Assembly: GCA_000091205.1 (NCBI GenBank)
Contig: AP006486.2
DNA: 64,000 nt
Direction: 5' to 3' (one strand)
From: Cyanidioschyzon merolae
Lineage: Eukaryota
Shown: in pieces, positions 29 to 60,843 of the stretch
How positions within the stretch are numbered: the stretch's first letter is position 1
Layout: every line of letters starts with the position of its first letter
Notes under the pieces: generated by a model
What the model was told of the DNA's origin: nothing
Seen by the model: the letters and a program-made list of their open reading frames with translations, nothing else
The model's database searches: none
Made by a program: the position numbers and the translations under genes

Positions 29-2435
29 CACTTGACCGCACTGCCCCGTCCTATCCTATACTGTACTACCTGCTCAATGAGCTACAACTGGTCTTTGCGA
101 GCACGTATGAAGCACTCGAGCATCTTTACGAAGAGCATTGGCGGGGGCCGTTCAAGGTTGTTTCTTGACGCAGAGTCCAAGGAAGGAACTGGACAGGTGC
201 AGTGGAGACCGACGGAGTATCCCTCTGGTTGCACTCTGCTCAGTCGATACCCGAGTCCCGCAAAGAGGCTCGTTTCAATCGCTCATCGTCGCTGAAATCT
301 AAAATTTCGCGGCGGGTGCAGGTCCCGGGTTGCAGGACGTCATAGCTGTCGCCGTGCTCCCAGGTCAGGACGACGAAGCCAAGGGCCTGAACTGAAAGCA
401 GCTGGAGAAGCTAAATGTTTCCAGAGCTCCGTCTTATTGAGGGTCGCGCATGACAGGTGTCAGAAGGCATACCGACAGATGGAATGGACGCGGCAGGACC
501 CAGATAGACGCCCTGAATACCGTGCGGAGCAGAGGTGGTCCTTCGAACGCTTCAGCCGAAGATTGCGTGAGCGTCTGAATGGCTCGTGCGGAAGGCGTCT
601 CTGGCAGGCGTACCCGAGGCCGCGCTGAGGTCGCCAACTTTTTCGGTTGCACGGAGACAAGAAACGTCCATTGACCATCCACTTCTATAAATTGGAGAAG
701 GAAATGACCGACAAGTCGCTTCGTTCGAAGGCAGCGTAGGGTTCTTGATGTGTTGCGGCGTGCAGTGGCTCCACTCTTGCTCGTCGAATGCGAGCGCACG
801 ACAAGTGCAGGAATCGACTCTTCAGGAATCCCATCGGTGAGTGCGGGACGACAAACACTCCTTGCGGACACGGGTGTGCGCTGAAACTGATTGAGAAGAA
901 GCGAGTGAAGCGCAGACGGCTGTATAAGATGGTGTACGGCAGGGTGACCAAACCTCAGATACCGGTGCATTCGAAGGCGAGCGGCTTTGTATAGTGCGAT
1001 TCTACCAGCAAGCTTGTGCGCAGGCGCTTTCTGCATCGAGACTTGAACGTCCCGCTCAACGTTCGGAAATGTCACGTGCCTCCGGAGCGCTCAGCGGCTT
1101 TGCATCGTGCGGGTTGTCGGGGAAGAATCGTTCGCTTCTCAGCGTAGGCATTGTGCTGGAGCGCTGAGGACTCCCGATGCAGAACAAATCAGTAGCCGGG
1201 ATCGAGGATCGTGGATTTCCGCCTGGAGCAAGACACTGGTATGGAACGGTGTATCAGTTCGGAATAGGCTGGAGTGCCGCTTGTCTACATCGGGAAAGAC
1301 TTTCGTAGGCAACTGATGAGTGATTATGGTGTAGGATTACCCAATAAAATGGGCAGAAGAGCACCATAATATCGGTTCCTGAAATTAACCGATACGGCGA
1401 TACTTGCGAATACTGGGATCGTTTCATGAAGCTCATGAGCTAAAATGTATCGAGACAGGACTCGAGCGCTTCCGGCAGGATAACAGAACCCCATGTAAGG
1501 TAGTGTAGTGTTTTTCTTCCGTTCCGGCCCGTGAGATGCTTGAAGACGCCTTGTTGAGTGGTACACAATGTTTCTCAGTGGCGTCCGATCACACTTTGCG
1601 CATCGATTGTCGTTCTAACTGGCTGCTCCAGACTCCAGATATTTCGAGGATCTTGCACGAACAACGGCGCCTAGATTGCTTGCTTCTTGACAAGTATGGT
1701 TCCTTGTTTATGCGCCCCGGGTGAACTTAGATCTTGCTCGGTCTCAGCGCGTATCTACGAGACTGTGATTGCCGCAAAACACGTCAATTAGATCATGACC
1801 AGATATCTATTCCGGCTTATTCTTCGCTGTGCAGCTCGTACCTTGACAATATCTTGACAGCGTCCCTATTAGCGTTCTATATGGGAATCCAGCAACCTGT
1901 ACGCCCATACATGATAGTCTGAAAGTTTCCGCTAGTCACTGCTCCATGCGGTGCAGTTCATACGAGAATGCTCAGAATATTTTTGCCAGATTTTTCGCTG
2001 AAGCTCCCAATAGCCAGCGGAACTTGCTGTCTATAAAGCCGGAAAACGTGTTCGGCCCCTGGGGGAGGCAACTTGTAACCGAGGCGCGGCGCTTCGCCTC
2101 AAGAGTCTGTGGCCTGCGCCGCCTCCTTCGGGCCAAGACTGGAAACACCGGAAAATAACTAAAAGTCAGTTGCGTCGCCAGCGAATGCTCGACAAAGCAT
2201 CGCCAGTACAAGTCAGAGCAGGTGGACGGGTACGCTAGGCATGCAAGACACTGCCCAACCGAGCCGAATTCCACAAAGGAAAAGAATATCCGTCCCGATT
2301 CTATACGAATTCCGCAACAGCTGGAAAAGCGCGCGAGGTAGCATCCGCAGCCCGAGGTCTTTTCGAACCGACGATCTACATGCTCAGTGGAGCGAAAAGG
2401 CATCGCTTCCATAGAGAATGTAAATACACTCACTC

Positions 2436-2783
2436 TCAGACGCCCTCAGCCGTTTTCGACAGGCCCACTTTCATCGGCTTCAGCTTCGTCCTGCACACTT
2501 CGAGCTTGAGGGGCTGCCCCATGGAGCTGGATCGCGTCAGATCCTCGAGTCTCTTCTCCGGCACCGCACATCTCCTGATATTGATGGCAGCACTCAAGTC
2601 TCGATTCCCGAACTCTATAGGCTCATTGCCACTAATGGAACGCATCACTTCACGGATTCCTAAGCTTCTTGCTCTCAGTGCCAACCGATGCTCCGTGAGC
2701 GCCCCGTGCTTTTCTATCGCCGAAGCGCTCCGCGGCCTGCTCGCCATCACGACCTTCTGAAGTTTAAACCCAAGCTCATCCAC
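2436..2783 (-). pseudogene. TnpB/Fanzor-like C-terminal fragment with a RuvC-III-like motif 'NRDLSAAINIRRCAV'
   Basis: The 'D-x-(N/S)-A-A-I-N-I' motif is characteristic of RuvC-III in TnpB, Fanzor and Cas12. The same core recurs at 9.9k, 40.8k, 44.8k and 60.4k. No N-terminal RuvC-I/II is found in the same frame. Confidence 0.5.
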
Positions 2784-3478
2784 TGGATTTTCATTTCTTG
2801 AAATGAACGCACTTCTTCTTGCACTTAGGTGGGACCTTCCCGATGATAAAGAAGAACTTACGGAAGAAAGACGGGATGCATATCAGCGTTACCGTGTACT
2901 GAACATTTCAGCAATGCGCCCAGTGGAGCGATCATTACGTTTCTCGACGGGAAGCACTCCATGGATGGGGTCGAACCACGGAGAGTACGGAGGAGTGAAA
3001 ACCACTTCTACCCCGACAGAATTAGCAAAAGCTGGAACGCGACGTGAATGATGAAGTGCAACTTTATGCAATAGAGGGGTATTATCAGACGTGGGGAGAA
3101 GGCTTCAATAGTTGGACATACTGAATGCTGTTGTATGAACCCTCTCTACGAGCGAAACCAACGGCGCCAAACGAATCCTCTTGAACTAGAACAGATGAAG
3201 ATGTCCTCGTTCCCTACCAGCTCGATCGTACATACAGCGGGCTTGCTCTGAGCCAATACGCATATTCGTGCCGACTGTTTCATCTGAAGCAAGTCACATC
3301 GACCGAAAAAACATACCGACATCTCTGTTCTTCACAACCATGGCGACTTTCGAGGAACTCTGTAGTTGTGATGTTGGTGGAAGATGGCTGTGCATGAAAT
3401 TTGACTGCTTTTTTTGCGAATGTATCCCAGTGTATTCAGTAGCATACGAACAAGCTGTTGGGAAACAGAGACGCCCGT
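2500..3478 (-). mobile_element. Inverted-repeat arm A: ~1 kb copy of the TnpB/Fanzor-like repeat family, about 99% identical to arm B (9187-10170) in opposite orientation
   Basis: ORF pairs are near-identical between arms: 2436..2783(-) vs 9882..10418(+), 2380..2760(+) vs 9905..10279(-), 3268..3480(+) vs 9176..9397(-), 2889..3071(-) vs 9594..9776(+). Nucleotide identity breaks at 3478/9187 (inner ends) and near 2500/10170 (outer ends). Confidence 0.85.
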
Positions 3479-4854
3479 AACTGCTATTATCTTCTCCTTT
3501 GTTTTGCGTGAGATGATCGAGGAGTCCTTTTTGTACCATTCACCGCAAGTGGGTCGTGATAATGTCGGGTTTTGGCACCTTGCGCGTATACGTGTTTCTT
3601 TCAGTGTTCCTGAATTATCAGAGGAATGTGGCATGACTGACCTGAAGGAGTTTGTCATCCGCTTGCACTGTTCTGTAAAGACTATATCCTACAGGCAATT
3701 ATTCTACAATTTATAAGGTGCACTGCATCATGATTTCGATCTCTTGCTAAAGACTGCACCGGCTGTGGAACGAAACTGAGTTGTAAGACTATAATGGATG
3801 GTGAATGGTGGATCCTGAGGTCATGGTGCAGAATGATGAACACCCTCACGGACGCGAATAGTATTCGCGCTCAATCGAAGATAACTCTGTTCGTGTACAC
3901 GATCCGTCAATCATCATAAAGAAACTATCCGGTTGCTACATCCTATGGACCATTGAACAATAGCAGTGACACTTACCATCGAATCGGTGCATTTTTACCG
4001 AAAAGAACAAAAACTAACCTCTTACTAGCAACTCTACAGCAGCTTCTTTCTTCTCTACGCTGAGCGATAGAAGGGGGAGGAGTTTTCCGTAGTTTCCGAC
4101 GTTTACGTTCTGGGCGGAAGGTCCGGCGGGCCGGACAAGTCTGCAACGCAAGAACGTCATGCTCCTCCCTGTGGCGGGTGCTGCGGTTCGACCTTTAGCA
4201 GCTTGTCCGCAGCCCAGTTTATTCGGGCACTGGGCGTGGCCCTGGTCCCGGTGATCCCCTAGCTATCGCTTCGCATTGCCGCATGCAGTAGGTCTGTCTG
4301 CGCAGTTTGCAGGCTTCCGGAAGGATGATGTTATCCGATCCCGTGTCGGATGAACCACGCCTCGAGTCGACATGCCGATTGGTATGGCAACGCGGATCTG
4401 TCTCCGCGCTTCATCCGCACCAGCGGTATAGACGCTTTTGCGGGTGCTTACAACAGGCTCGGGGCACGGTAGAATATACGAAACGATCAGTATATCCGAG
4501 AGCAAATATGGGTAATGGAACTGGGACGTGTTGCGCAGCATGATGAACGCTTTCTCGATTACCAACGTCGATCACGCAATCTGGGATCCATGTACAACGT
4601 AAACGCTTCGTCGAAGAAAAAACATATAGAACTGAGCAGCGCGCTGGACCCGCCGCAGTTCGCAGCGACCCAGGTCACCAGATCCATACACTTGCCACAG
4701 GCAATAGCGTTCTGCACGCAATGAGCGCCTCACAGAAAAGGGTCACTTTAGTCGACAATTTTGAGGAGCTCTTTTTCGTTCGCGGAAGGAACGCCAAGGC
4801 GTAGAGAGGGCCGTTAGTCACCTGTGGGAAGCTATTTGTGGCTGTGTATTCTAG

Positions 4855-8691: not shown

Positions 8692-8989
8692 TCTGAACGC
8701 ACAATCGTAGAGCCGTTACGCGTTCATCGATAGTGTGGGATATCGATGAGGGGATAGCGGGATCCCCCATATGCACAATGATGATGGATGTCCAGGTAAG
8801 AAGCCACCATCCGACCTGGGCCCGCTCAGTTCCAGTCTCCGCTAACAATACCTCCGTTCAGAGATGGTACAGTCTTTCAACTCGAATGTGTTTTAGCCTC
8901 GCTGCGGTGCATAGCTTGAGATCGAATTCAGTATGCAGTGTAACCAATAGATCGGGGACGAATTGACTGCAGCTATGCATTCTTCAATG

Positions 8990-10300
8990 ACCGGCGCACG
9001 GAGGACTGCATTCCTCCTCCTTCAGTTCAGACATACTACAGTACACAGATGGTGTAGGAGCACTGACAGAAAGAAGTAAGTGCGCTCCGCGCCAAAAACC
9101 GATATTCTCAAAGACTGGTTGAGGTCAATTGTAGAAAACGACCGATTGGTCATCTTGCGGAAAGCAAAAGCGACGTTAGAATCCATCCGGGCGTCTCTGT
9201 TTCCCAACAGCTTGTTCGTATGCTACTGAATACACTGGGATACATTCGCAAAAAAAGCAGTCAAATTTCATGCACAGCCATCTTCCACCAACATCACAAC
9301 TACAGAGTTCCTCGAAAGTCGCCATGGTTGTGAAGAACAGAGATGTCGGTATGTTTTTTCCGTCGATGTGACTTGCTTCAGATGAAACAGTCGGCACGAA
9401 TATGCGTATTGGCTCAGAGCAAACCCGCTGTACGTACGATCGAGCTGGTAGGGAACGAGGACATCTTCATCTGTTCTAGTTCAAGAGGATTCGTTTGGCG
9501 CCGTTGGTTTCGCTCGTAGAGAGGGTCCATACAACGGCATTCAGTATGTCCAACTATTGAAGCCTTCTCCCCACGTCTGATAACGCCCCTCTATTGCATA
9601 AAGTTGCACTTCATCATTCACGTCGCGTTCCAGCTTTTGCTAATTCTGTCGGGGTAGAAGTGGTTTTCACTCCTCCGTACTCTCCGTGGTTCGACCCCAT
9701 CCATGGAGTGCTTCCCGTCGAGAAACGTAATGATCGCTCCACTGGGCGCATTGCTGAAATGTTCAGTACACGGTAACGCTGATATGCATCCCGTCTTTCT
9801 TCCGTAAGTTCTTCTTTATCATCGGGAAGGTCCCACCTAAGTGCAAGAAGAAGTGCGTTCATTTCAAGAAATGAAAATCCAGTGGATGAGCTTGGGTTTA
9901 AACTTCAGAAGGTCGTGATGGCGAGCAGGCAGCGGAGCGCTTCGGCGATAGAAAAGCACGGGGCGCTCACGGAGCATCGGTTGGCACTGAGAGCAAGAAG
10001 CTTAGGAATCCGTGAAGTGATGCGTTCCATTAGTGGCAATGAGCCTATAGAGTTCGGGAATCGAGACTTGAGTGCTGCCATCAATATCAGGAGATGTGCG
10101 GTGCCGGAGAAGAGACTCGAGGATCTGACGCGATCCAGCTCCATGGGGCAGCCTCTCAGGATCGAAGCGTTCCTGCGTAAACTGGAAGCGATAGAATGCA
10201 ACCGGCCAAAAAGGCTAGCTGGCGTCCGTGCGTCGGTATTAGTTGCCCCGATATGGTCGTGGGGCATTTTTGGTTCCATTGACCGTATAATGGACAGGAG
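8990..10300 (+). mobile_element. Inverted-repeat arm B plus flanking family homology: a TnpB/Fanzor-like element copy
   Basis: 9187-10170 is about 99% identical to arm A. 8990-9187 and 10170-10300 are more weakly homologous to copies at 36.9-38.0 kb, 40.9-41.1 kb and 44.9-45.05 kb. It contains the RuvC-III motif 'GNRDLSAAINIRRCAV' in ORF 9882..10418. Confidence 0.7.
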
Positions 10301-36919: not shown

Positions 36920-38040
36920 TTATGCACGGAGGACTACGTTCCTCCTTCAGGTCAGTCGTACCCCAGTACTCTGACAACTGGGGAACACTGAAAGGAGCAA
37001 TTATATGTGCACAGCGGTAAAAACCGATACTCTCACAACCTGCTTTGGTTCAGTGGTAGAAAACAACCCGTGGATCAACTTATAGGAAGCAAAAGCGACG
37101 ATTGTAGATAACACAAGCGTCACTGTGCCTCAATAGTTTGTTGGTATGGTACTGAAATCACTGGGATAACGTCACATTAAAAGTCCAATTTCATTCAGAG
37201 CCATCTTCCTCGGACGTCACTACGACAGAATTCCCCGAAAGACGCTATCGATATGAAGCACAGGGACATCGGTTTGTTCTGTCAGTCGATGAGACGTCTT
37301 TCCCACGAGACCGTCCCAGCATATATCGGTATTTGCCGAGAGGAAACCAATTGAATATAAGATCGAACTCGAATAGAAGGCTCATACCACAGCATTCCAT
37401 TTATCCAACCATTGATGACGCTTTCCACGTCTGACAACGTCCTTCTCTTGCACATCGTTGCCTTTCATCGTTCCCTTCGCATTCTTGTTTTTGCGAGTTC
37501 TATCTTCCGGAACTCCTTCTCCCTTGCTGAAAGGTCCTCACCTAAGTCCATTATGAGAGGCGTTCATTTTAAAGCAATAAAAAATCCGTGGGATAGAGAT
37601 GGACATGGAATTCGAGGATTCTGGAGGGCACCAATCGCCAGATTCGACAAAGAAACGAAAAAATTTTCTTCTCGCTGATCATCGAGTGAAGAGGAGCGAG
37701 TAACGAAGAAGAAGAGAGGAGATAGACGAGAATATTTGTTTGCCCGACGGAGCGACGACGAGACCATTGTGGCACAGAGGGCACGAGTTCTAGGAATTCT
37801 TGAATGCATGAATTCGACCAGCGGCAATATATGCAAGGAGTTCATGAACTGAGACTTCATGCCAGCCGACAAGATCAGGAGATGAGTGGGACTGAAGCCG
37901 CAACCCGAAAAGGTGACGCGACTGAATTCTATGGGACAGCCTCCCAGACTCCAATTGTACCTGGATAAACTGAAACCGATACCAGGTGGCCGCTCGAAAA
38001 AGGGAGACGTCTGCAGATCGATATTCGGTTACGCTACGAG
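36920..38040 (+). mobile_element. Degraded third copy (copy C) of the TnpB/Fanzor-like repeat unit
   Basis: 36920-37320 aligns with 8990-9400 at the nucleotide level, e.g. 'cacggaggactacgttcctcc...aaaaaccgatactctca...ggaagcaaaagcgacg...cagccatcttcc'. 37900-38040 encodes 'MGQPPRLQLYLDKLKPIPGGRSKKGDVC', homologous to the C-terminal tails of the other copies ('MGQPLKLEVCRTKLKP', 'GGRSKKLGRVC'). Confidence 0.5.
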
Positions 38041-38283: not shown

Positions 38284-39354
38284 ATGTTCACACAAGCGAA
38301 CTTGCCGCTTGTTCGTCGAGGGTTTGCGTTACGTAGCGAGATTCCGGAACAGTGTTGCCCAAAACGGAGGTTGATTGTTTCGAGACCCAGTCGGGCAGCT
38401 TGGAGTCGCAAGTCACTGTTAGTACAACAACGGTCTGGCGTTGGTACGCTGTCTGCGCGGAGTTCTGTCCAGTTTGATCCAACCGAAGACTATTACGCAG
38501 TTTTAGGAGTGGAAAGCGACGCAGACCTGGCAACCATCAAGCGAGCATATCGCCGACTAGCCTTGCAGAACCACCCTGACGCGAATAAGGATCCGCAGGC
38601 ACGCGAGAAGTTCATTCGCATTCTGCGTGCTTATGAAGTGCTATCGAATGAGGACGCCCGCAAGCAATATGACTTGCAACGTCGCTCGCCGGGTTCGGGG
38701 CCTTTCTGGGGCATCGGAGGTCCTGGCGCGCAGCGGCGACGTTCCAGCAGCACCGAGGAGTACCCCGAGGACTTGAATGATTCTTTTGGAGCTATTTTCT
38801 CGGATCTTATGGAGCAGCTCGGACGTCTTTGGCAGGAGGGCACAAAAGAGAATGGTATTTTTGCAGATTTTGTCGAATTTCTAGAGAGCCAGGGTGCCAA
38901 TTGGGGCTCCCTGCGGAATGAGGACCTCAATAGCGTTCTCACTTCGAGTGATGAAGACGTTCTCCAAGCAGAACTGGATGATGCTCGTTTCGTGCGTGAG
39001 CAATGTGAGCAGCGACTACGCTTGCTTCAAAATTCTCTAGAACTCACCGAGCGGCGACGCGCGGAGCAGGAGCAACGAGCGAAAGATGCACATCTAAGTG
39101 CAGGAACCCAGCAGGAGGCCCGGTCTAAGGTGCATGAGCTCTCGCTGGAGGCGCGGAGACTTCAGTCTCGTATTCGCCAGGTTCAGTCCCTGATTGCTCG
39201 CCAGCGCTCCCGCGAGGGGTTGCTGCAGTCCCGTTTGGATGCAATTCGTCGCGTACAGGAGGCCCGTGCTGCTTCTGAGGAGAAAGTTCGGAATCTGAGA
39301 AGCGAGGTGGAGGAGGAATTGGAGAAATTGAAAAGGGACTTGGGCAAGCTCTGA
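38284..39354 (+). CDS. DnaJ (J-domain) protein with a C-terminal coiled coil
   Basis: The J domain 'DYYAVLGVESDADLATIKRAYRRLALQNHPDANKDPQAREKFIRILRAYEVLSNEDARKQYD' carries the HPD motif. The N-terminal region looks like a presequence. The C-terminus is heptad-rich (EQEQRAKDA...LQSRIRQVQSLIARQ). Confidence 0.85.
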   Translation: MFTQANLPLVRRGFALRSEIPEQCCPKRRLIVSRPSRAAWSRKSLLVQQRSGVGTLSARSSVQFDPTEDYYAVLGVESDADLATIKRAYRRLALQNHPDANKDPQAREKFIRILRAYEVLSNEDARKQYDLQRRSPGSGPFWGIGGPGAQRRRSSSTEEYPEDLNDSFGAIFSDLMEQLGRLWQEGTKENGIFADFVEFLESQGANWGSLRNEDLNSVLTSSDEDVLQAELDDARFVREQCEQRLRLLQNSLELTERRRAEQEQRAKDAHLSAGTQQEARSKVHELSLEARRLQSRIRQVQSLIARQRSREGLLQSRLDAIRRVQEARAASEEKVRNLRSEVEEELEKLKRDLGKL

Positions 39355-40594: not shown

Positions 40595-41112
40595 CGCAAT
40601 GAGCGTACAAGGAATGCGCACGATGTTTTGTCGCAATACCGATACTTGAGTTCCGAACGTCGTATACACACCATGAGTTGGGATGTACACTTCAGAGGGT
40701 CGAGATGGAAAAGTGCCAGAGGAGTCCTGAGGAAATAGCAAAGTACGGACCGCTGACGGAGGAGCAAATGGAAAGGAGGGCAAAAGTGCGAGGACTTCTT
40801 GCACTGGTGAGTACAACGAATGATCGCAAGAAATGGATGGAGTTTGTGAATTGAGATTTTAATGCCGCTATCAATATCCGGAGATGTGCGGTGCTGGAGA
40901 GAAGACCTCCAGAGTCGACAAGACAGAACTTTGTTGGACACCCTCTCAAAGTGGAACTGCATGAGAAAAAATTGGAACCAGTAGGAGGTGGCCGGTCGAA
41001 TAAGAGTGGGAGGCGTCTGCACGACAGTTGGTGGCTTCTTGCCTAGGGCGGGCTTCTCGCCACTACTGTGCACTGCCGGCAGCAACGTTTTTCTTTTGAA
41101 AGGCATTTGTTG
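40595..41112 (+). mobile_element. 5'-truncated TnpB/Fanzor-like element copy (zinc-finger region through RuvC-III to the conserved 3' terminus), a pseudogene
   Basis: It is about 85-90% nucleotide identical to 44540-45054. It encodes '...VN*DFNAAINIRRCAVLERRPPESTRQNFVGHPLKVELHEKKLEPVGGGRSNKSGRRL' with in-frame stops. It ends in 'GGCAGCAACGTTTTTCTTTTGAAAGGCATTTGTTG' at 41112, 29 bp before the macro-domain ATG. Confidence 0.65.
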
Positions 41113-41140: not shown

Positions 41141-41803
41141 ATGCGGGATAAGCTTGGCTTTCTCACGCCGTTCGGAATGAGCAGCAGTACGGTGTATCGC
41201 CTGCGTCCACCAGCACCTCAGACGACTCGGTTGGTACTGAAACAAGCCGACATCACTCGCGAAGCAGTTGATGCGATCGTCAATGCTGCGAACGAGCGCA
41301 TGCTAGGAGGTGGTGGCGTTGACGGCGCCATCCACCGAGCTGCTGGTAAAGAGCTACTGGAGGCTTGTAAGCGGGTACCCGAAAAGCGTCCTGGTGTGCG
41401 GTGTCCTACTGGTGAAGCGGTTCCAATAAAGATCACATGGCCTGTTTCCGAGGGGAACTTGCCTCAGGTGCGCTATATCATAAACACGGTGGGACCGATT
41501 TACCAGAACGCGGAGAAGAGTGCGCCACTTTTGCGCTCGGCGTATCGTAACTCCCTTCTCACAGCAATCGAGCACAACTGTCGATCAATTGCTTTTCCGA
41601 CGATATCTTGCGGCGTGTATGGATATCCTCTTCGAGAGGCCGCTCGAGTTGCACTCGAGGCAGTACAAGACACGCTCGGGGAATCACCGCAGCAGTCGTT
41701 GCAAGAGGTGCGTTTCTGTCTATTCAGTGAGGACGCCTTGAAGACGTGGACACTGGCTGCTGAGCAGCTTCAACTGGAACGCGTGAAAGAAGGCGCTTCA
41801 TAG
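41141..41803 (+). CDS. Macro-domain (ADP-ribose-binding / MacroD-like) protein
   Basis: 'DITREAVDAIVNAANERMLGGGGVDGAIHRAAG' together with 'YIINTVGP' and 'SIAFPTISCGVYGYP' form the canonical macro-domain signature. Confidence 0.85.
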   Translation: MRDKLGFLTPFGMSSSTVYRLRPPAPQTTRLVLKQADITREAVDAIVNAANERMLGGGGVDGAIHRAAGKELLEACKRVPEKRPGVRCPTGEAVPIKITWPVSEGNLPQVRYIINTVGPIYQNAEKSAPLLRSAYRNSLLTAIEHNCRSIAFPTISCGVYGYPLREAARVALEAVQDTLGESPQQSLQEVRFCLFSEDALKTWTLAAEQLQLERVKEGAS

Positions 41804-42709
41804 AAGTATGCTCCAGACATGCGTCTTTATGACAGCGCTATCGATATACCTTGAGTCGCTGCCTCAACCGATATGCGCCTGGCATGCTCAAGCACTTGCA
41901 TAGATGCCAAGTGCGGAACCTGGTGTTTTCGTTGCTCCAAGTCGACTTAGGGTTCCGGTGGAAGGTGCTCCTTCTGTTGAAAAGCGGACGTACACTAGTA
42001 GCAGAATTCAAATCAGTTCCTTATTCCAGCGTCCGTGCGGCATGCATAACAAGCAAAGGGAATAAACGTATATCCGTGCTTGGGAACACTACCGTACCTA
42101 GTTTGTCTACGATCAATAATACTAACGAAACACTTAATGACTAGTGTGACGCATACCTCATCCGCCCAAGCGTAAGCCGCAGCGAAAACTACGCGTGTGC
42201 TGGAGTCATCGAGGGGTTTCGTGCCGGGCCCCAGCGACCCGTTGTATTACAGGGCGGTACTGCTATGGGCAGTAGTGTCGGCACCAGCGACAGAGCCTAG
42301 CGCAGGGGATCACTCTATGTGAGTTTCCGATCTAGGACACCTGATTTCCGCTGCAGTGCGTCGGTGAGAACACGCATGTGCTAATGCGACGTCGGACACG
42401 TGTCCTTCATCGATCCGTGTAGCGTCTCGCGAGGTGCACGCATCGCGCTCAGTGAGTGCACCTGGCAGAACTGGCACTCAACTGACACGACGCGCATGCC
42501 GCCGCCGTTGAAGGGAAACGCAATCTTGATCTCTAGCGTGTAGCTCTAACGTAACAGTTGTATTTTCGTTAATTTCATAGCCAAGTATAGTTTTCAGTTC
42601 GATTGTGTTTCAACCCTCAAGTAAAAATATTCGATTGATTTGTTGCAGTATATAACAGAAGCGTTTAAAGAGGTTTCTTTTTCAAAAAAAAGACTGAAAA
42701 AGGAAAGTT

Positions 42710-45054
42710 ATGGAAAAGCAAGTCGATGATCCTGGAGCTCAGTGTCGCTGGTTGCCAGAAAAACAAAAAAAAACAGTGCCGAGTCCAGAAGAAAAGGAAG
42801 AGAAAAAGAGGCAAAAGGGGGATGCCCTACGTCGAAGGCTGCAAGAAAGACGACTTTACGACGAGATGATGGTGGAAGCCTGCCTTCTTCATTATATCGG
42901 AGATCCGTAGCAGGCAAACTTGCGAGACGCTATCAGAAACCGTGTCGACTCATACTCCAAGAGTATTGTCAAGGCGTCTTCAGGACTGATGCATGTAGCA
43001 ATGGAGGTGTATCGCGAAGTAACGGACATCGACACAGTCAAGATTCCGGAAGATTTTTTCAACAAGACATTTATTCGCCACCTTATCTTTGGTACAGGGG
43101 AAACGTCGAAGAGAAATGAGCGAGTGCATGCCCTCCACTGAAATCACCCCGAATACCGCTTCGATCGTACTCGGTTCAGGGGAGACGGGCATATTTACAC
43201 CTCCGGTGCGATGAAGTACCTCACGATCGTGAAGAAGCACTTGACGATGAACCTGGAACGTTTCATGACACGCGCCGTGTTTGTGCTGTGCCCGGGCCTC
43301 TCTCGCAAAGGAATATGGGCGGTTATCAATGGCATCACGAACGATAGTAAGAGCGAAAGAGAGATCGAATTCATCGGCAAGAAGCCGTCACGCAGGAGCA
43401 CAAATGAGGATTCCGTCATCCGTGCGGTCATAGAAGAGCACCGTGCAGTCTTGGGGTTGGCGAATCAAACAGACAAGATATCAGAGTTGAAAAAAGGATA
43501 GGGAAAGATACTATCGCCTCATCCTGCGCTATTTCGTGTTTCTGGACCGAGGGCTATAACGCAAGGCAGAGGTGCAGCTGAGTGAGGGAAAAAAATGAAG
43601 AGTGGGAGAGACGGAAGGCTGTCCTAATGGAGAAGCGCTTCAACGTGGTTCCAATGTGGAAAGTCAAGTCACATTTTGTGACTATCGACTCCAGCGTCCT
43701 TTACGGCATCACCTAGGAGATCAGTCCGGAGTTCATTGTCAGCAGGGAGAACTTCACCCGCGAAAACCTGGAGACATACTGGAAGAATATCTTCAATTTC
43801 AAACGTCTGAGAGTGAGCAAGCAAAAGTTGTTCACTGGGATGGTCGAAACCGATGGAGTAGCCATGTGTGTACACTATCGGCGGTTGAAGAAAGACCGTC
43901 CAGTTCCGCCCTCGGCTGCGCCCGTGACGAAGGATGAAGAAAAGGAGGAGGCGGATCCTGCAACGCAGGAGGTAGAGAATAACGACCTTGTCGTTGATGC
44001 GGCGAAGCATGAAGATGAGAAGGAGGCGGGTCCTGAGACGCAGAAAGTGCAGAATAACGACCTTGTCGTTGACGCGGACCCTGGGAATACGAATATCATA
44101 ACCATCGCTGTACCCAAACGTGCGGAAGATAGCACTGACGGTAACTTACGTCAGAAAGACATGCGTCTGTTGAGACTCTCGAGAGCGAGATACTATCGCG
44201 AATCCGGTATAATGATTCTAAGGTAGAAAATCGAGACGAAGAATGCAGGAATGAAGGATCACTTTGAGGCTTTGAGCAAGGTGATGGGCCGCGGAGCGGA
44301 CTGTAAAGCTTTTCGGAAATTCATGAAAGTTCGCGTTGCTCATTGGGATGCCTTGTGGGAGGAGTATGCCAAGCCCCGGTGGGTTCGTTTGCGTGTGAAT
44401 CTGTATTGCGGGAAGCAGCGTGCATTCGCGAACTTTTTCAATCAGTTGAGTGCCCTGAAGGAGGATGAAAATCAGAGGCTCGTAGTAGCGTATGGAGCAG
44501 GGCGATGGAAGACCCAAAAAGGGACTACGCCAGCTCCAACGACAAGAACGTACAAGGAGTGCGCCGGGCGTTTCGTCACGATACCTGTAGATGAGCTCCG
44601 AACATCGTATACACACCATGAACTGGGGTGTACACTTCAGTGGGTCGAGATGGAAAAGCCTCAGCGGAGCCCCAAGGCTATAGCAAAGTACGGACCGCTG
44701 ACGGAAGAGCAAATGGAAAGTAGGGCGAAAGTTCGTGGATTGCTTGCACTAGTAAGTACAACGAATGACGGCAAGAAACGTATGGAGTTTGTGTACCGAG
44801 CTTTTAACGCCGCTATCAATACACGGAGATATGCGGTGCTGGAGACGAGACCTCCAGTGTTGACACGAGAGAACTTTGTGAGACAACCGTTTAAAGTGAA
44901 ACTATATGAGAAACAATTGGAAGCAGTAGTTGGTGGCCGATCCAAAAAACTGGGACGCGTCTGCACTTTAGTTGGAGAAGTTTTGTCTACGGCGGGTCGC
45001 TCGCCATTACTGTACACTGGCGGCAGCGTTTTTCTTTTGAAAGGCGTTTGTTAT
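42710..45054 (+). mobile_element. Near-full-length TnpB/Fanzor-like (OMEGA-family RuvC nuclease) element, coding region disrupted
   Basis: Frame 2 (42710-43501) is interrupted by TAG and TGA. It switches to frame 0 (43602-43937) and then frame 1 (43813-45201), where an in-frame TAG at 44224 splits the ORF. Frame 1 carries RuvC-I '[17 protein letters not shown]', RuvC-II 'RFVTIPVDELRTSYTHHELG' and RuvC-III 'EFVYRAFNAAINTRRYAV'. The 3' terminus is shared with the 40.6-41.1 kb copy. Confidence 0.7.
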
Positions 45055-45201
45055 CGCTGCCGTGGCCAAAAGAAACTTTTAAAAGCGATCACGAGGCTTG
45101 ACCAAGACCGCACAAAGGCGACGGCTTGTGAGCAACAACAGAGGTGCTCTTCATGTCCAATGTCGAGCGGCACGAGGAGCCAAACGGAGCGCAGACGCTG
45201 A
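43813..45201 (+). pseudogene. TnpB/Fanzor-like RuvC nuclease reading frame: two ORFs in one frame split by a single TAG at 44224-44226
   Basis: ORFs 43813..44226 and 44251..45201 are both in frame 1 and give '...GIMILR*KIETKNAGMKDHFEAL...'. An internal 72-bp tandem duplication at 43947-44090 encodes '[14 protein letters not shown] / [14 protein letters not shown]'. Confidence 0.6.
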
Positions 45202-48464: not shown

Positions 48465-50046
48465 CACGTGCGCGAAATCGAAAAACGCTCTTTTGGCGGG
48501 AAAGAAAAACGCAGCGCACGCATACGTCGCGTGAGTACACGGCATGGGCTGAGTTTTGTTTTCGTACAGTTCAGGTATCCAAGATTGCGTGCTTGGTATC
48601 AGCGTTCGGAAAAGCATTCGTCGTTCCACGTATCCATCTAGTGCCACAATCCGTAATTGCCCGCAGAGTTGCTGGTCATTACGCACGTTCTGTGGAGAGC
48701 GCGAGTCTGTGATGCGTGTGCACGATAGCACCTGTAACACAGGTGCGGATGCAGCACCAAAGCAGAACCTCCTTGACATACCACTGGGGGCGTCGGCTTG
48801 AGCATGGCGTCCAATAAGGTATACGCATCTGCTCTCCAGAGTGATGCTATTATACACAAAAACGCTGGATACGACTTTAAGCGCCAGCCGTGAAGCACGT
48901 CGATGACTGAACGCAGATCGCATGGCGCTGGGGCCCTGCCACGTATTCCTCTGGTGCGGCGCGGTATGGTGCCCTGGTGCGCGTCTCTGCACGCGCCCGC
49001 CAATACGGCCATGACACCCGCTTCGTGCTGCTGAAGCAAGCTGCATCGACGACGGGAGAGTCCTGGTTCGCTGCCGTCAAAGGAGCAGCGTACATGCATC
49101 ACGATATGCTCTCGTTGCAAGGCTACTCCGCATGTCGTGCAGGAACGCACGGTAGCGCGAGCACGGTACGAAATATCGCTTATTTATTATAAACAGATTC
49201 TCTGCTGTCGGGGAAGTTGTGCAGAGGCGATATGGACCACGCTCCTTGATCGCTAAGAAAAGGCGGTCAAGGCGAATACGCATGCTGCCGGCACTCAGAA
49301 CGCGATTGAGAGAAAAGCAGCGGAAGCGCCTCATATCGACAAGCAGCAGCAGCCGCGGCAGCAGCTGCTGAAGCATCATCGCTTGGCTGCTGGGTCTAGC
49401 TGCCGCTCTTTTTCTCTATTTACTGTAAACGTTAATCACAACACCGGTATACAGCTGAATCGTCCGTGTATGGCTTTGGTCCTTGCGATGAACGATGCGC
49501 AGCATCCTCGCGACGACGCCGGCGACATGCAGGCCAAGCTCTGCGAAAACGACAAAGCACCTTGAGGACCGCGTTATTTGCTGCATCGAAAACCAGTCAA
49601 GGCATCGCAGGCTACATATTTTGGTTTTCGGCCGGTCAACTTCGTGCTAGCGTTGCAGCTATCCAGATACCAGATAGGCTGCGGTGACCAGAACGGATTC
49701 GCAATCCAGATTGGTTTCTAGGTTTCATTAACCAAGCGCAGTCTGAGCACGAACGAGAACGTCAATCGACTCCAGAATCTCCAAAATATTATTTCGAATT
49801 CGTACAGCGACTGCAGGCAGTTGCATTGCCTCTCGTGACAGACTCCGGGCAGCATTGGCTAACGAGAGTCGCGGTTCTGGAGAGCATGCAGCGGGATCCA
49901 GCGTTCCACGGCGTAGCTATGGGAAGCGTTGCGTATCCGAAAGAGGCAAATCGAGGCATCAGGAGGTCCTGTCAACCAGTTAGATTCATCGATCGCATTA
50001 TACAAGAGAAAACGGAGAGTCACCCGCGCGGTCCTCCGGATATTTA

Positions 50047-59800: not shown

Positions 59801-60003
59801 CACAGTCCAGCGTCCTGCTCAGGACAGCGCAGGGCGGCACAGACGAGCCGCTCCTGTGGGAACTGCCAACTGGATGGCGCTCTACCTGGACCATTTTCTG
59901 TCCACAAAAAAGTCTCTTTCTCTTCGACGAGTCGAAACGTCTCCTCGTCGTCGATAGAAGCAGGCAACTGCGCAGGAGACGTCGCCGCTGCTCCCGTGGG
60001 CAT
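53836..60003 (-). CDS. ABCC/MRP-type full ABC transporter (TMD-NBD-TMD-NBD), 2055 aa
   Basis: NBD1 has Walker A 'GEVGSGKSSLLLAILGEL', signature 'LSGGQKARVALARALY' and Walker B 'LLLLDDPLSAVD'. NBD2 has 'GRTGAGKSSIAQVLFR', 'LSAGQRQLLCLARVLLRRPRVLVLDESTANLD' and 'LIIAHRMDTI'. Multiple hydrophobic TM blocks are present. There are long low-complexity inserts between NBD1 and TMD2 and inside NBD2. Confidence 0.95.
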   Translation of the reverse strand: MPTGAAATSPAQLPASIDDEETFRLVEEKETFLWTENGPGRAPSSWQFPQERLVCAALRCPEQDAGLWTRITFRWLNALLELGKIKPLELDDLWSLPSIDDPTRISARFQETWKRRCERHQYRPRARDHSQGRATREAPHVPHPRGICGLFSQLRLWILHRSGVAMSPTDPEEEQTNHEAFLASPHTVAKSPRPLSVSTECREDVVPKRPEQGLGAVVLALLDAFGGRCLGSAPLKLCYDLLNFVGPLALERMLQFLSRGAHEESSLEGMLCVLALFTAPMLQSICLHQYFHMNYRVGMQARAALMDAIYRKTLRLSVCARNHYGAGDIVNLLAVDTQRATVDLTPYLHIIWSGPLQIIIAMVCLYRVVGMAAFAGFLFMAALIPLNGWVARLIGQQSRALMERKDERIRLLHEILSGIRQIKIMGWEQAFFERVQEARLRETQVLRRKQLLEAFSNFSWAAAPVATALVTFGCMGVGPSAQRLTPATAFGALTLFNILRFPLSVFPDVLSSLMDAAVSLRRIQAFLCHYEVPERFALDAVETDSASSGTEVSETLAGRPSVARKATSSFLGGGPANGLDRVANSQSASKAAAADVTHFPVAGTETMRSTDAPAEASLFIDAGSAATRETPGSELLRVPSLPFLSDTSAARSTSLQEHQESRLHQRQTTASRLLPPYGTSFRAGHWNEATPGMEAPGDDVVISLRHMSYAFEPLPMQLDASLLLGVPSVHSSASGQSSMGGSSLLVPRHELAASIQNLDAVSCSFGAKHNDVDRSTYEGSVVQGVHGGLVPDDKAVDQTTASVHLGQTFRNAAACDPDMDTIMDMDTDTNTGAGPFATNQAGTVPSRKNALKNTPEMTEASPGQGTLSWVLHDITLQIQRGQLVLICGEVGSGKSSLLLAILGELYGYPATVEAAMSTTFEAKTTRSFASSYQGAHHLVRPTTIGYCPQEAYLMNASLRENILFYTPLDEQRYREVLEATALVDDLAQMPAGDRTEIGSKGINLSGGQKARVALARALYSCASLLLLDDPLSAVDATVGRVLFERALCGPLARGRTRILVTHHRQWLSRADLVIELAGGRIQRHSVRPQPLRIPRGKPRDQQASPIQVSLLSDAENDEKQLLASGDKAGAFRVPTSRAAEPLVMEHSNELEVSGSFPLGTIDATAGAGRGAPEDALAAEHAVGDLPLSEVSIAQSSRPGIEQGATPHAKGNAFDQFADNNDNDKYALRSRATYAVASNHESPADGAAPSADPESMPEAPGTTSHQLVTAENRETGSVKRTVYLAYFAAAGRFLLAVTILASVLAQVFRIGTDSWLGIWSEAGSRAATSAAQRTGADKRNPSTPSGLPTGAPGLGHVPKMSPGVRTRIQNLMTPSGSHLAAEEHQVVSVLTPDQEHRGWQQYQQHRSCADALTSRYQQGRSWKQSIFWGFPNRPSRERAAETSRSDSQRVLHATSFYLGIYALLNLSTLLMLLARSILAALSTLSAAIGLHTRLLQVVLRAPTMFFDTTPVGRILNRFSKDQDALDEDLPYALLSFLNCILQVLGVVWVTSTVTPVMLLVLIPTGILYYRLSRYYLCTSRELKRLEALSKSPILARMGETAAGIPVIRAFGLVREHVQVFLEAVADHMRPYLYSVACNRWLSFRLEMLSAMTVFATALAVFLFRRSLSPAAAGLSITYSLLVTQTLSWLVRMTTEVENGMSAVERILWEIPSEAPAYIEGSLPAHWPSEGRVEFRDVWMRYRPELPPALRGVSFTILPGQRVGLIGRTGAGKSSIAQVLFRTVGDPLQAGAVIVDGIDISRVGVAQLRERLAMVTQDTILFRGTLRENLDPFHRHTDAELWQALRYVSLAENDTHSAWAAVDRTATKTAVAGCRHGDTSAHTKTGTDAAVNAADAVAEHGTLAAHGASTAALKQQEEQARSMPALKSSNRFPSLDTHIAEGGSNLSAGQRQLLCLARVLLRRPRVLVLDESTANLDYRTDRAIQRTIRACLQGSTLLIIAHRMDTILDCDLIIGLAAGRVVECGSPASLLQRRDSLFYQLAWEQGVLEQITSGTLS

Positions 60004-60149: not shown

Positions 60150-60551
60150 CGCCTAGTCCTGATGGAGAGTCCACAGACAGTCAGAGCAGCGAACAATGTT
60201 TGCGATTTGCGAGGGTTCATGAGTACCCATGCCCAGACGCCTCCTAGTCATTTTTGACCGGTCGCCTGTTATCGGTTCCTGTGCTTATCCAGGTACGCTT
60301 CGGGCTTGAGAGGCTGTACCATAATGTTAGGTCGTCTTCAGCACCACACATCGTCTAATGTTGATAGCAGCGTTGAAGACTCGGTGGACAAAGTCCGTGC
60401 GTTTATTGCCGCGGCTTGGACTCATCCATTTAAGGATTGTTAGAACTCGTTCCTTCAGTGCGACTACAGTCTCGTCATCGTGCTGTCGGACAGGCGCCAA
60501 TTCCCGTGTATCTCCCCTTTTCTTGGTCCTCTTCGCGCGATGGTAGGCCAC
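60150..60551 (-). mobile_element. TnpB/Fanzor-like element fragment (RuvC-III and tail) directly upstream of, and co-oriented with, the ABCC gene
   Basis: ORF 60327..60551(-) ends with 'TDFVHRVFNAAINIRRCVVLKTT'. Downstream on the minus strand, 'MTRRRLGMG' resembles the 'GGRSKKLGRVC / SGRRLHDS' tails of the other copies. Confidence 0.5.
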
Positions 60552-60843
60552 GAGAGGATTTTTTCATTTTTTGTCGAAACCGGGGATGACGGCTCTCCTG
60601 CATCCAGACGTCCATGTCTATACATTTCGCTTGGATTTTTAATTTCTCCAAATGAACGCACTTCGAAAACGTCTGCTATAAACTGCGACAAAGCATTTGA
60701 TGACATGCACCTGGATGCGGCGTAAAATTGAGGTGAAAGACAACAAGCAAAGTGTCCATAAAAGAAGGACAGCGTGTTTATCGTGCTGAACAGCTACGTT
60801 GCCTTTCCCAACCAGGATGATGAAACGTCTTCCACACGATCGC

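Follow-up and report, generated by a model that had tools for sequence, protein, structure and literature searches.

Does the interrupted, Fanzor-like reading frame on Cyanidioschyzon merolae contig AP006486.2 (assembly GCA_000091205.1) represent a working nuclease gene, a protein fragment retained by the host, or the remains of a transposon? The question concerns positions 42710–45201 of a 64,000-nt stretch of this contig, the whole of which is referred to here as the window. A first-pass annotation, made from the sequence letters and a list of open reading frames (ORFs), had described there a decaying Fanzor-like copy with recognisable RuvC motifs or, less likely, a copy with small introns. 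From the evidence presented below it is almost certain that window segment 41996–45052 (+ strand) is an old, inactive insertion of CMe-1, a non-autonomous, Fanzor1-bearing family without terminal inverted repeats (TIRs), and that its gene is a decayed pseudogene drifting neutrally. The finding is in this sense already known: the copy belongs to a transposon family that received its name in 2013, when its copies were also counted and it was classed as Fanzor1.

Only one Fanzor1 family, CMe-1A, is listed for C. merolae (Bao & Jurka 2013, Mobile DNA 4:12; PMC3627910). Its consensus is 3169 bp long, with ~150 copies in strain 10D, each ~80% identical to the consensus; the gene consists of one exon encoding 734 amino acids (aa), TIRs are absent, target-site duplications (TSDs) are not determinable, and the 5′ 635 bp are 95% identical to a separate repeat, TE-N2_CMe (PMC3627910). 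The consensus DNA and the CMe-1 protein used for comparison were taken from the supplement of that paper. Consensus positions 662–3169 aligned to window positions 42458–45046 with 85–88% nucleotide identity in two blastn segments (662–2196 at 85.1% and 2120–3169 at 88.3%), the latter reaching the last base of the consensus at window position 45046, while no similarity to the CMe-1A consensus was found upstream of consensus position 662 (5′ of 42458). Residues 1–734 of the CMe-1 protein aligned by tblastn in three successive frames of the window (71–79% identity). A majority consensus of 31 non-redundant paralogues independently gave the published C-terminus, with the stop directly after ...SWRRFV, and restored the motifs GADPG, VDEFRTS and VNRDFNAAIN.

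The limits of the whole degenerate element (~3.06 kb) were set by paralogue similarity and by the end of the consensus. On the left, similarity began at 41996–42002 in 10 paralogous loci; on the right, it stopped at ~45046–45059 in most of 85 paralogue matches, the published consensus ending at 45046. The ends carry no detectable TIRs, as the best inverted match between them scored 10 and was equalled in 74 of 300 shuffles. All parts of the element lie on the + strand. A 5′ module differing from TE-N2_CMe (41996–42457), from which CMe-1A similarity is absent and which is common to 10 other loci, is followed by a conserved non-coding leader directly 5′ of the Fanzor ATG (42458–42709, consensus 662–905; blastn against CMe-1A and a three-way alignment). 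Tblastn and codon-wise comparison then identified an N-terminal coding remnant in frame 2 (42710–43498, residues 1–262, 71% identity), a short frame-0 remnant enclosed by two +1 insertions (43491–43595, residues 261–295) and the main remnant in frame 1 (43588–44958, residues 293–724, 79% identity). The last 15 codons of the ancestral ORF (44943–44990) are overlapped by a conserved 3′ tail (44920–45052), recognised in at least 36 paralogues and carrying a terminal hairpin at 45027–45046.

Lesions were scored codon by codon against the published CMe-1 consensus, and their coordinates were checked. In 5′ to 3′ order, they comprise a compensated −1/+1 pair (42736 and 42764), TAG at 42908–42910 (consensus Tyr67), TGA at 43139–43141 (Glu144), a +1 frameshift at ~43496 that creates TAG 43499–43501, TAA at 43557–43559 (Glu283), a +1 frameshift in an A-run (~43586–43595), TAG at 43714–43716 (Lys335), TAG at 44224–44226 (Lys480), replacement of Asn-Arg-Asp by Tyr-Arg-Ala in RuvC-III (44794–44802), a −1 frameshift at ~44948, and conversion of the canonical stop from TAG to TAC (44988–44990). 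The copy also differs from the published consensus by 75 nt inserted in frame (43972–44046), the second unit of a tandem repeat. In total, five premature stops, three uncompensated 1-bp frameshifts (+1, +1 and −1) and one lost stop codon were counted.

The ORFs listed in the first-pass annotation were all located (42710–42910, 43602–43937, 43813–44226 and 44251–45201), as were the frame-2 stops (TAG 42908, TGA 43139 and TAG 43499) and the in-frame TAG at 44224–44226 that parts the last two ORFs. The frame-0 ORF 43602–43937, however, had been taken for a coding frame, whereas alignment to the CMe-1 protein by tblastn placed the homologous frame from ~43588 onwards in frame 1; because the frame-0 ORF was followed, the stops TAA 43557 and TAG 43714 had been missed. 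The frame-1 ORF, which had been run to 45201, is Fanzor coding sequence up to ~44948, but its ~70 final codons (~44948 to TGA 45199–45201) are not. As a result of the lost stop and the −1 shift at ~44948, this 316-aa ORF (44251–45201) runs past the 3′ end of the element (45046–45052) into host DNA and overlaps the start of a helicase gene at 45153.

That the frame changes might instead be small introns or programmed frameshifts, and the stops be read through, so that the gene would be functional, finds some encouragement in the correct order of the frames and in the retention of the RuvC-I Asp and the alternative RuvC-II Glu. However, when the copy is compared with the consensus and with paralogue L002, every change of frame comes down to an indel of one base and none to an intron-sized block; the published CMe-1 gene has one exon, and the RuvC-III catalytic Asp is Ala. 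Both neighbouring host genes, encoding a Macro-domain protein and the helicase, terminate with TAG, which agrees with the earlier view that TAG acts as a true stop in this sequence. A syntenic metagenome contig (L001), 99% identical to the window over 10.7 kb, has in common with it TAG 42908, the +1 at ~43496, TAA 43557, TAG 44224, the Tyr-Arg-Ala triplet, the −1 shift and the lost stop. Comparison of genomic copies, suggested at the outset as a way to find copy-specific lesions, revealed three that are private to the window with respect to L001: TGA 43139 (TGG in L001), the +1 at ~43589 and TAG 43714 (AAG in L001). This strain thus lacks one frameshift and two of the five stops, and in turn carries two private lesions, TAG at Trp485 and a −2 deletion. 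A functional gene is therefore barely conceivable, and the earlier preference for a decaying copy over small introns was borne out by the single-base indels, the one-exon published gene and the polymorphism of the lesions between strains.

Assembly error is an unlikely source of the stops and 1-bp indels, since a metagenome assembly made independently shows 3 of the stops and 2 of the frameshifts again. Among 80 loci fetched, no intact paralogue starting at the ancestral ATG was found. The least damaged (L002 6001–8259, equal to L003 and L004; protein P0004) has a 752-aa open frame, 722 aa from its first ATG, with GADPG, VDEFRTS and VNRDFNAAIN intact and four repeat units; its sole break is a frameshift in the N-terminal A-run.

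Linking the family to solved Fanzor1 proteins by sequence required a deep profile. A Pfam scan of the conceptual translations returned no TnpB or Fanzor match, and none at all for the 316-aa ORF; a single-sequence phmmer search of PDB found nothing, and a 10-sequence profile gave chance matches only. Database search recovered 104 close relatives (60–80% identity, all from hot-spring metagenomes) along with more distant full-length proteins of 600–750 aa, and a second, profile-based search added 140 more distant relatives. The family is multicopy and transposon-borne, with 507 tblastn-confirmed loci in hot-spring metagenomes and at least 7 fragments in the window. An alignment of 120 relatives (A2; Pfam PF26935/DUF8286), numbered by the relative P0079, was invariant at D398 (Asp in DPG) and E569 (Glu in DEFRT) and nearly so at D636 (Asp in NRD). 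Searched against PDB, the profile of this alignment matched Parasitella PpFz (9cf0, E = 2.3e-19), Spizellomyces SpuFz (8gkh, E = 1.2e-11) and Guillardia GtFz (9cer, E = 3e-3), and no nuclease family besides Fanzor1.

Fold comparison was made on the intact relative P0079, which is 41% identical to the window translation, and not on the broken window copy. Its AlphaFold2 model (predicted local distance difference test, pLDDT, 92.1; predicted template modelling score, pTM, 0.89) was searched against PDB with Foldseek. The top seven matches were all Fanzor1 (E 4e-18 to 1e-15, template modelling (TM) score 0.53–0.72), over alignments of ~670–800 columns and with SpuFz, PpFz and GtFz in the first places, followed by Cas12f at E ~1e-4. 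Taken with the profile matches and the CMe-1 consensus, the predicted fold of this relative, which is that of Fanzor1 with its REC, WED, RuvC and NUC parts, places the window copy in the Fanzor1 family, in agreement with the family call made originally.

All three motif peptides reported at first were found again, that of RuvC-I at 44062–44112, VDELRTSYTHHELGCTL at 44587–44637 and RAFNAAINTRRYAV at 44797–44838, and the catalytic positions could be read from the alignment. The proposed RuvC-I Asp in D-x-D-P-G is indeed retained (codon GAC in DADPG, 44077–44079), in a column invariant in 120 sequences. The RuvC-II Glu is likewise present, but as a relocated residue: the canonical position is held by Gly (VVAYGAGRW, 44494–44496), and the alternative Glu (GAG in VDELRTS, 44593–44595; invariant column E569) lies 33 residues away. 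In the A2 profile alignment this Glu pairs with DEYKTS of SpuFz and DEFRTS of PpFz, and the canonical position reads AYG[SA] across the clade. Such a rearrangement, with an inert residue at the canonical RuvC-II site and a relocated Glu some tens of residues downstream, immediately ahead of a [TS][TS] motif, is typical of Fanzors (PMC10530073). In RuvC-III, the loss of the catalytic Asp to Ala noted previously was upheld (TAC CGA GCT at 44794–44802; consensus VNRDFNAAIN, window VYRAFNAAIN). The window copy thus has YRA where the family has NRD, as does the sister strain (protein P0014), a change that marks this copy as inactive without setting the family apart.

The 72-bp tandem duplication reported at 43947–44090 is a real tandem repeat in front of RuvC-I, but its period is 75 bp: Tandem Repeats Finder gave 2.0 copies at 43928–44077 (84% matches, no indels), that is, two in-frame 25-aa units in the linker before the RuvC-I strand. 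Nor can it be read as a sign of decay. Among the 31 paralogues, two units were the commonest state (11 paralogues), ahead of three (9), four (6), five (4) and one (1), and the published consensus has a single unit. The repeat is thus an in-frame variable-number repeat in a loop before the RuvC-I strand, and not a lesion of the window copy.

When the two strains are compared, differences number 17.0 sites per kb in the element core, 9.0 in the Macro coding sequence (CDS) and 3.6 in the helicase CDS. One remnant ORF has 16 non-synonymous and 6 synonymous codon changes; for the 316-aa ORF the figures are 8 and 5. To judge from these counts, the substitution pattern is one of neutral decay, which also counts against a domesticated 316-aa protein.

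Several observations sit less easily with a dead member of a known Fanzor1 family. The CMe-1 family lacks the CCCC zinc finger of the original Fanzor/TnpB motif; the 5′ 460 bp of the copy differ from CMe-1A, so that strictly it is a CMe-1 subfamily with another module; the 3′ tail, where a guide RNA might be expected, gives poor structural signals (in folding, the window tail does not surpass its shuffles, z = +0.45, and the consensus tail does so weakly, z = −1.74, while a hand-built four-helix model with 80% of cells paired had its covariation matched or exceeded in 437 of 500 shuffles); and fragments of the copy may be expressed, the 316-aa ORF being open in both strains.

The first of these objections bears on the whole clade. 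A CCCC zinc finger is common to SpuFz1 and ISDra2 TnpB (PMC10432273); it lies between RuvC-II and RuvC-III and forms part of the Fanzor/TnpB motif of Bao & Jurka, who nevertheless classed CMe-1 as Fanzor1 (PMC3627910). Its absence from the window copy had been attributed to decay, an explanation that no longer holds, as no C-x(2-4)-C pair occurs in 59 of the 62 clade members parsed, and at this site the CMe-1 consensus shows just HH...C...C; the window copy has lost one further Cys (EKCQRS > EKPQRS). One clade member (P0215) passes the Pfam cut-off for PF07282, the TNB domain (29.0 bits versus 26.3). We have treated the zinc finger as typical of Fanzor1 and not obligatory. As an observation in its own right, there is a clade of 600–750-aa Fanzor1-like proteins without the zinc finger, of which the modelled P0079 is still predicted confidently to have the Fanzor1 fold.

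The open state of the 316-aa ORF invites the proposal that it encodes a C-terminal Fanzor fragment, dead as a nuclease, which the host has domesticated and retained, its counterparts in C. merolae 10D and in the metagenome strain (P0014) being 97% identical. Yet besides the codon changes given above, the element core diverges ~5 times faster than the adjacent helicase CDS, and the last ~70 codons, which overlap the helicase start, consist of Fanzor sequence read out of frame followed by the non-coding tail and the host spacer. The ORF is absent from the 10D protein collection and has no Pfam match. Domestication is accordingly very improbable, and a decayed CMe-1 pseudogene remains the reading followed here.

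In Fanzor and TnpB elements the guide RNA is transcribed across the right end into the flank (PMC10432273), and by analogy an omegaRNA in the CMe-1 3′ tail (44920–45052) is plausible. Conservation among paralogues covers a tail of ~130 nt that extends across the stop codon; its terminal hairpin, of which there are two sequence variants, is seen in the predicted folds of the tail. RNAalifold on 36 3′ tails gave weak structure and no covariation, and Rfam matched no family in the element or the whole window. Past the last base of the consensus (...GAAAGGCG), window positions 45047–45060 and 35 paralogues mostly read TTTG(T/G)T and then a G/T-rich run like TTTGTTGTTGGTG (alignment A4, columns 131–143). 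The true 3′ end may sit 5–15 nt farther out, or the G/T run may reflect a target preference.

At the left, the CMe-1 copies are mosaic. One core is fused, at about consensus 640–700, to one or another of at least four unrelated 5′ modules, each several hundred bp long (L005–L079), and in the 400 bp upstream of the core each module was common within a subfamily. Since the module of the window copy is unlike TE-N2_CMe, this copy represents a CMe-1 subfamily other than ‘A’. Variable 5′ truncation at 42440–42503 was considered and rejected, the upstream sequences being subfamily-wide and thus alternative 5′ modules. Owing to the mosaic left ends, TSDs of CMe-1 copies were not definable.

Other observations on the ends concern paralogues and the consensus. 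Solo CMe-1 3′ tails occur in L066 (~1330–1453), L020 (~340–463) and L060 (~1000–1130), and in L066 and L020 the solo tail is followed, ~150 bp downstream, by the left end of a full-length copy; this placement suggests repeated insertion at or beside an existing right end. In the CMe-1A consensus, positions 5–24 and ~3082–3102 form a possible asymmetric inverted repeat of marginal significance (score 12, equalled in 4 of 300 shuffles), which recalls the ATIRs (terminal inverted repeats that are asymmetric) of Helitron2, although the spacing differs.

From these parts a history of the element can be proposed. The ancestral element carried a single intron-less gene for a 734-aa Fanzor1 protein, which by comparison with solved and assayed Fanzor1 relatives would have acted as an omegaRNA-guided double-strand DNA endonuclease. 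Three residues would presumably have made up its RuvC site: Asp in GADPG, the relocated Glu in VDEFRTS and Asp in NRDFNAAIN. Transcription of its guide RNA would have started at the ORF's 3′ end and crossed the right boundary of the element (PMC10432273, PMC10530073). Because most copies are 5′-truncated yet keep the 3′ hairpin end, our best guess at the mode of movement is a 3′-anchored, one-ended or rolling-circle-like process supplied in trans; the absence of TIRs is a further observation bearing on this. With five stops, three net frameshifts, a lost stop and Tyr-Arg-Ala in RuvC-III, the window copy is no longer able to make the protein and is drifting neutrally.

The element occupies a spacer between two host genes, with the Macro stop at 41803 and the helicase ATG at 45153. 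The Macro-domain protein on its 5′ side and the BACH1-like helicase on its 3′ side are exact matches to BAM79197.1 and BAM79198.1 of C. merolae 10D; the accessions are consecutive, and the 3.3 kb between the two genes are therefore without an annotated gene.

A further question is whether the right end, though the relic is dead as a nuclease, was inserted or kept as a promoter or regulator of the helicase. Right ends were counted at 23 non-redundant loci with enough 3′ flank, using the nearest long ORF and its first ATG. This ORF was co-oriented with the element in 18 of 23 loci, or in 20 of 23 once two spurious antisense ORFs were discounted, and its first ATG lay 6–323 bp from the right end. 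The downstream ORFs were mutually dissimilar and their translations, judged by eye, were of housekeeping type (e.g. alpha-tubulin, FtsZ and ATP synthase beta), while upstream neighbours showed no orientation bias (12 ‘+’, 19 ‘−’). In the window, all four evaluable copies had the co-oriented arrangement: right end 41104/41111 to the Macro ATG at 41141 (30–37 bp), 45046/45052 to the helicase ATG at 45153 (101–107 bp), ~38014 to the ATG of a DnaJ ORF at 38284, and, on the − strand, ~60234 to the ATG of a 2055-aa ORF at 60003.

The transcription of Fanzor and TnpB guide RNAs over the right end would fit a promoter role. Against it, intergenic spacers in this genome are short, so closeness by itself is expected; the ORF calls were crude (first ATG, spurious antisense ORFs); and the bias could stem from purifying selection against antisense insertions. 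Preferential insertion, selective retention and donation of a promoter are all conceivable causes of the orientation bias. A regulatory role for this right end, which would be compatible with a decayed CMe-1 pseudogene, is unlikely on present evidence, and we are similarly doubtful of the broader proposition that CMe-1 insertions are not random relics and that their right ends are targeted to, or kept as, promoters or 5′ untranslated regions in a compact genome.

Besides the main copy, six Fanzor-like fragments were detected in the window, five of which cover the C-terminal part alone. A 5′-truncated CMe-1 tail at 40601–41111 (+) matches consensus 2665–3168 at 86.5% over 40601–41104. Four C-terminal fragments have 44–50% amino-acid identity (37760–38014, +; 60234–60416 and 60560–60700, −; 9882–10230, +; 2436–2783, −), and a very diverged relic at 58–1126 (+), 25–31% identical to CMe-1, may derive from a second, older Fanzor family. 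An inverted segmental duplication (2495–3749 / 8912–10170; 91% over 1263 bp, rising to 98.9% in a core of 980 bp) has arms enclosing ~5.2 kb, and its outer ends hold two near-identical Fanzor C-terminal fragments still reading GNRDLSAAINIRRC. A solo copy of TE-N2_CMe, the 5′ 635-bp module of CMe-1A, lies at 4002–4612 (−) at 75.5% identity and without a Fanzor part, and there is a weak TE-N2_CMe match at 48577–48802 (+).

The finding itself matters little, being the re-identification of one degraded copy of a family published in 2013. For annotation, we recommend masking the BAM79197–BAM79198 spacer as a CMe-1 pseudogene and leaving the 316-aa ORF out of the gene set. Of interest to Fanzor specialists is a clade that lacks the CCCC zinc finger and yet has a Fanzor1 fold predicted with high confidence. 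The strong right-end bias, if borne out across the genome and by transcription-start data, would bear on how TIR-less Fanzor elements choose sites or survive at them.

Among known systems, the closest is CMe-1A itself. The window copy comes from the same species and has the same single ORF, absence of TIRs, length of ~3 kb and 3′ end (...GTTTTTCTTTTGAAAGGCG), and its divergence of ~13% from the consensus fits an old family published as ~80% identical. It differs in having another 5′ module (~460 bp) in place of the TE-N2_CMe-like 635 bp, one 75-bp repeat unit more than the consensus, a destroyed ORF and a mutated RuvC-III.

The solved Fanzor1 nucleases SpuFz1 (8GKH, 9CEU), PpFz1 (9CF0) and GtFz1 (9CER) match the CMe-1 family in fold over the whole length (TM 0.55–0.72), and have in common with it the DPG of RuvC-I, the NRD of RuvC-III, Gly at the canonical RuvC-II position and the relocated Glu in DE[FY][RK]TS, although sequence identity is just 11–15%; unlike them, the window copy is dead. 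TnpB of IS200/IS605 elements (e.g. ISDra2) resembles Fanzor as a transposon-borne, ancestral RuvC RNA-guided nuclease whose guide RNA is encoded in the gene's 3′ part together with the element's right end. It differs from CMe-1 in being prokaryotic and ~400 aa long, with a canonical RuvC-II Glu, a zinc finger and a partner transposase, TnpA, and TnpB-like proteins and Cas12f rank far below Fanzor1 in the P0079 fold search.

CRe-1/2/3 of Chlamydomonas reinhardtii are Fanzor1 elements described as non-autonomous Helitron2 (PMC3627910). No similarity of CMe-1 to Helitron ends was demonstrated, and a RepHel partner was not searched for; in addition, the CRe genes have 5–10 exons whereas that of CMe-1 has one. 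The two groups are alike in being non-autonomous, Fanzor1-only and without TIRs, in ending in a 3′ terminal hairpin, and in having copies that are often 5′-truncated with the 3′ end kept.

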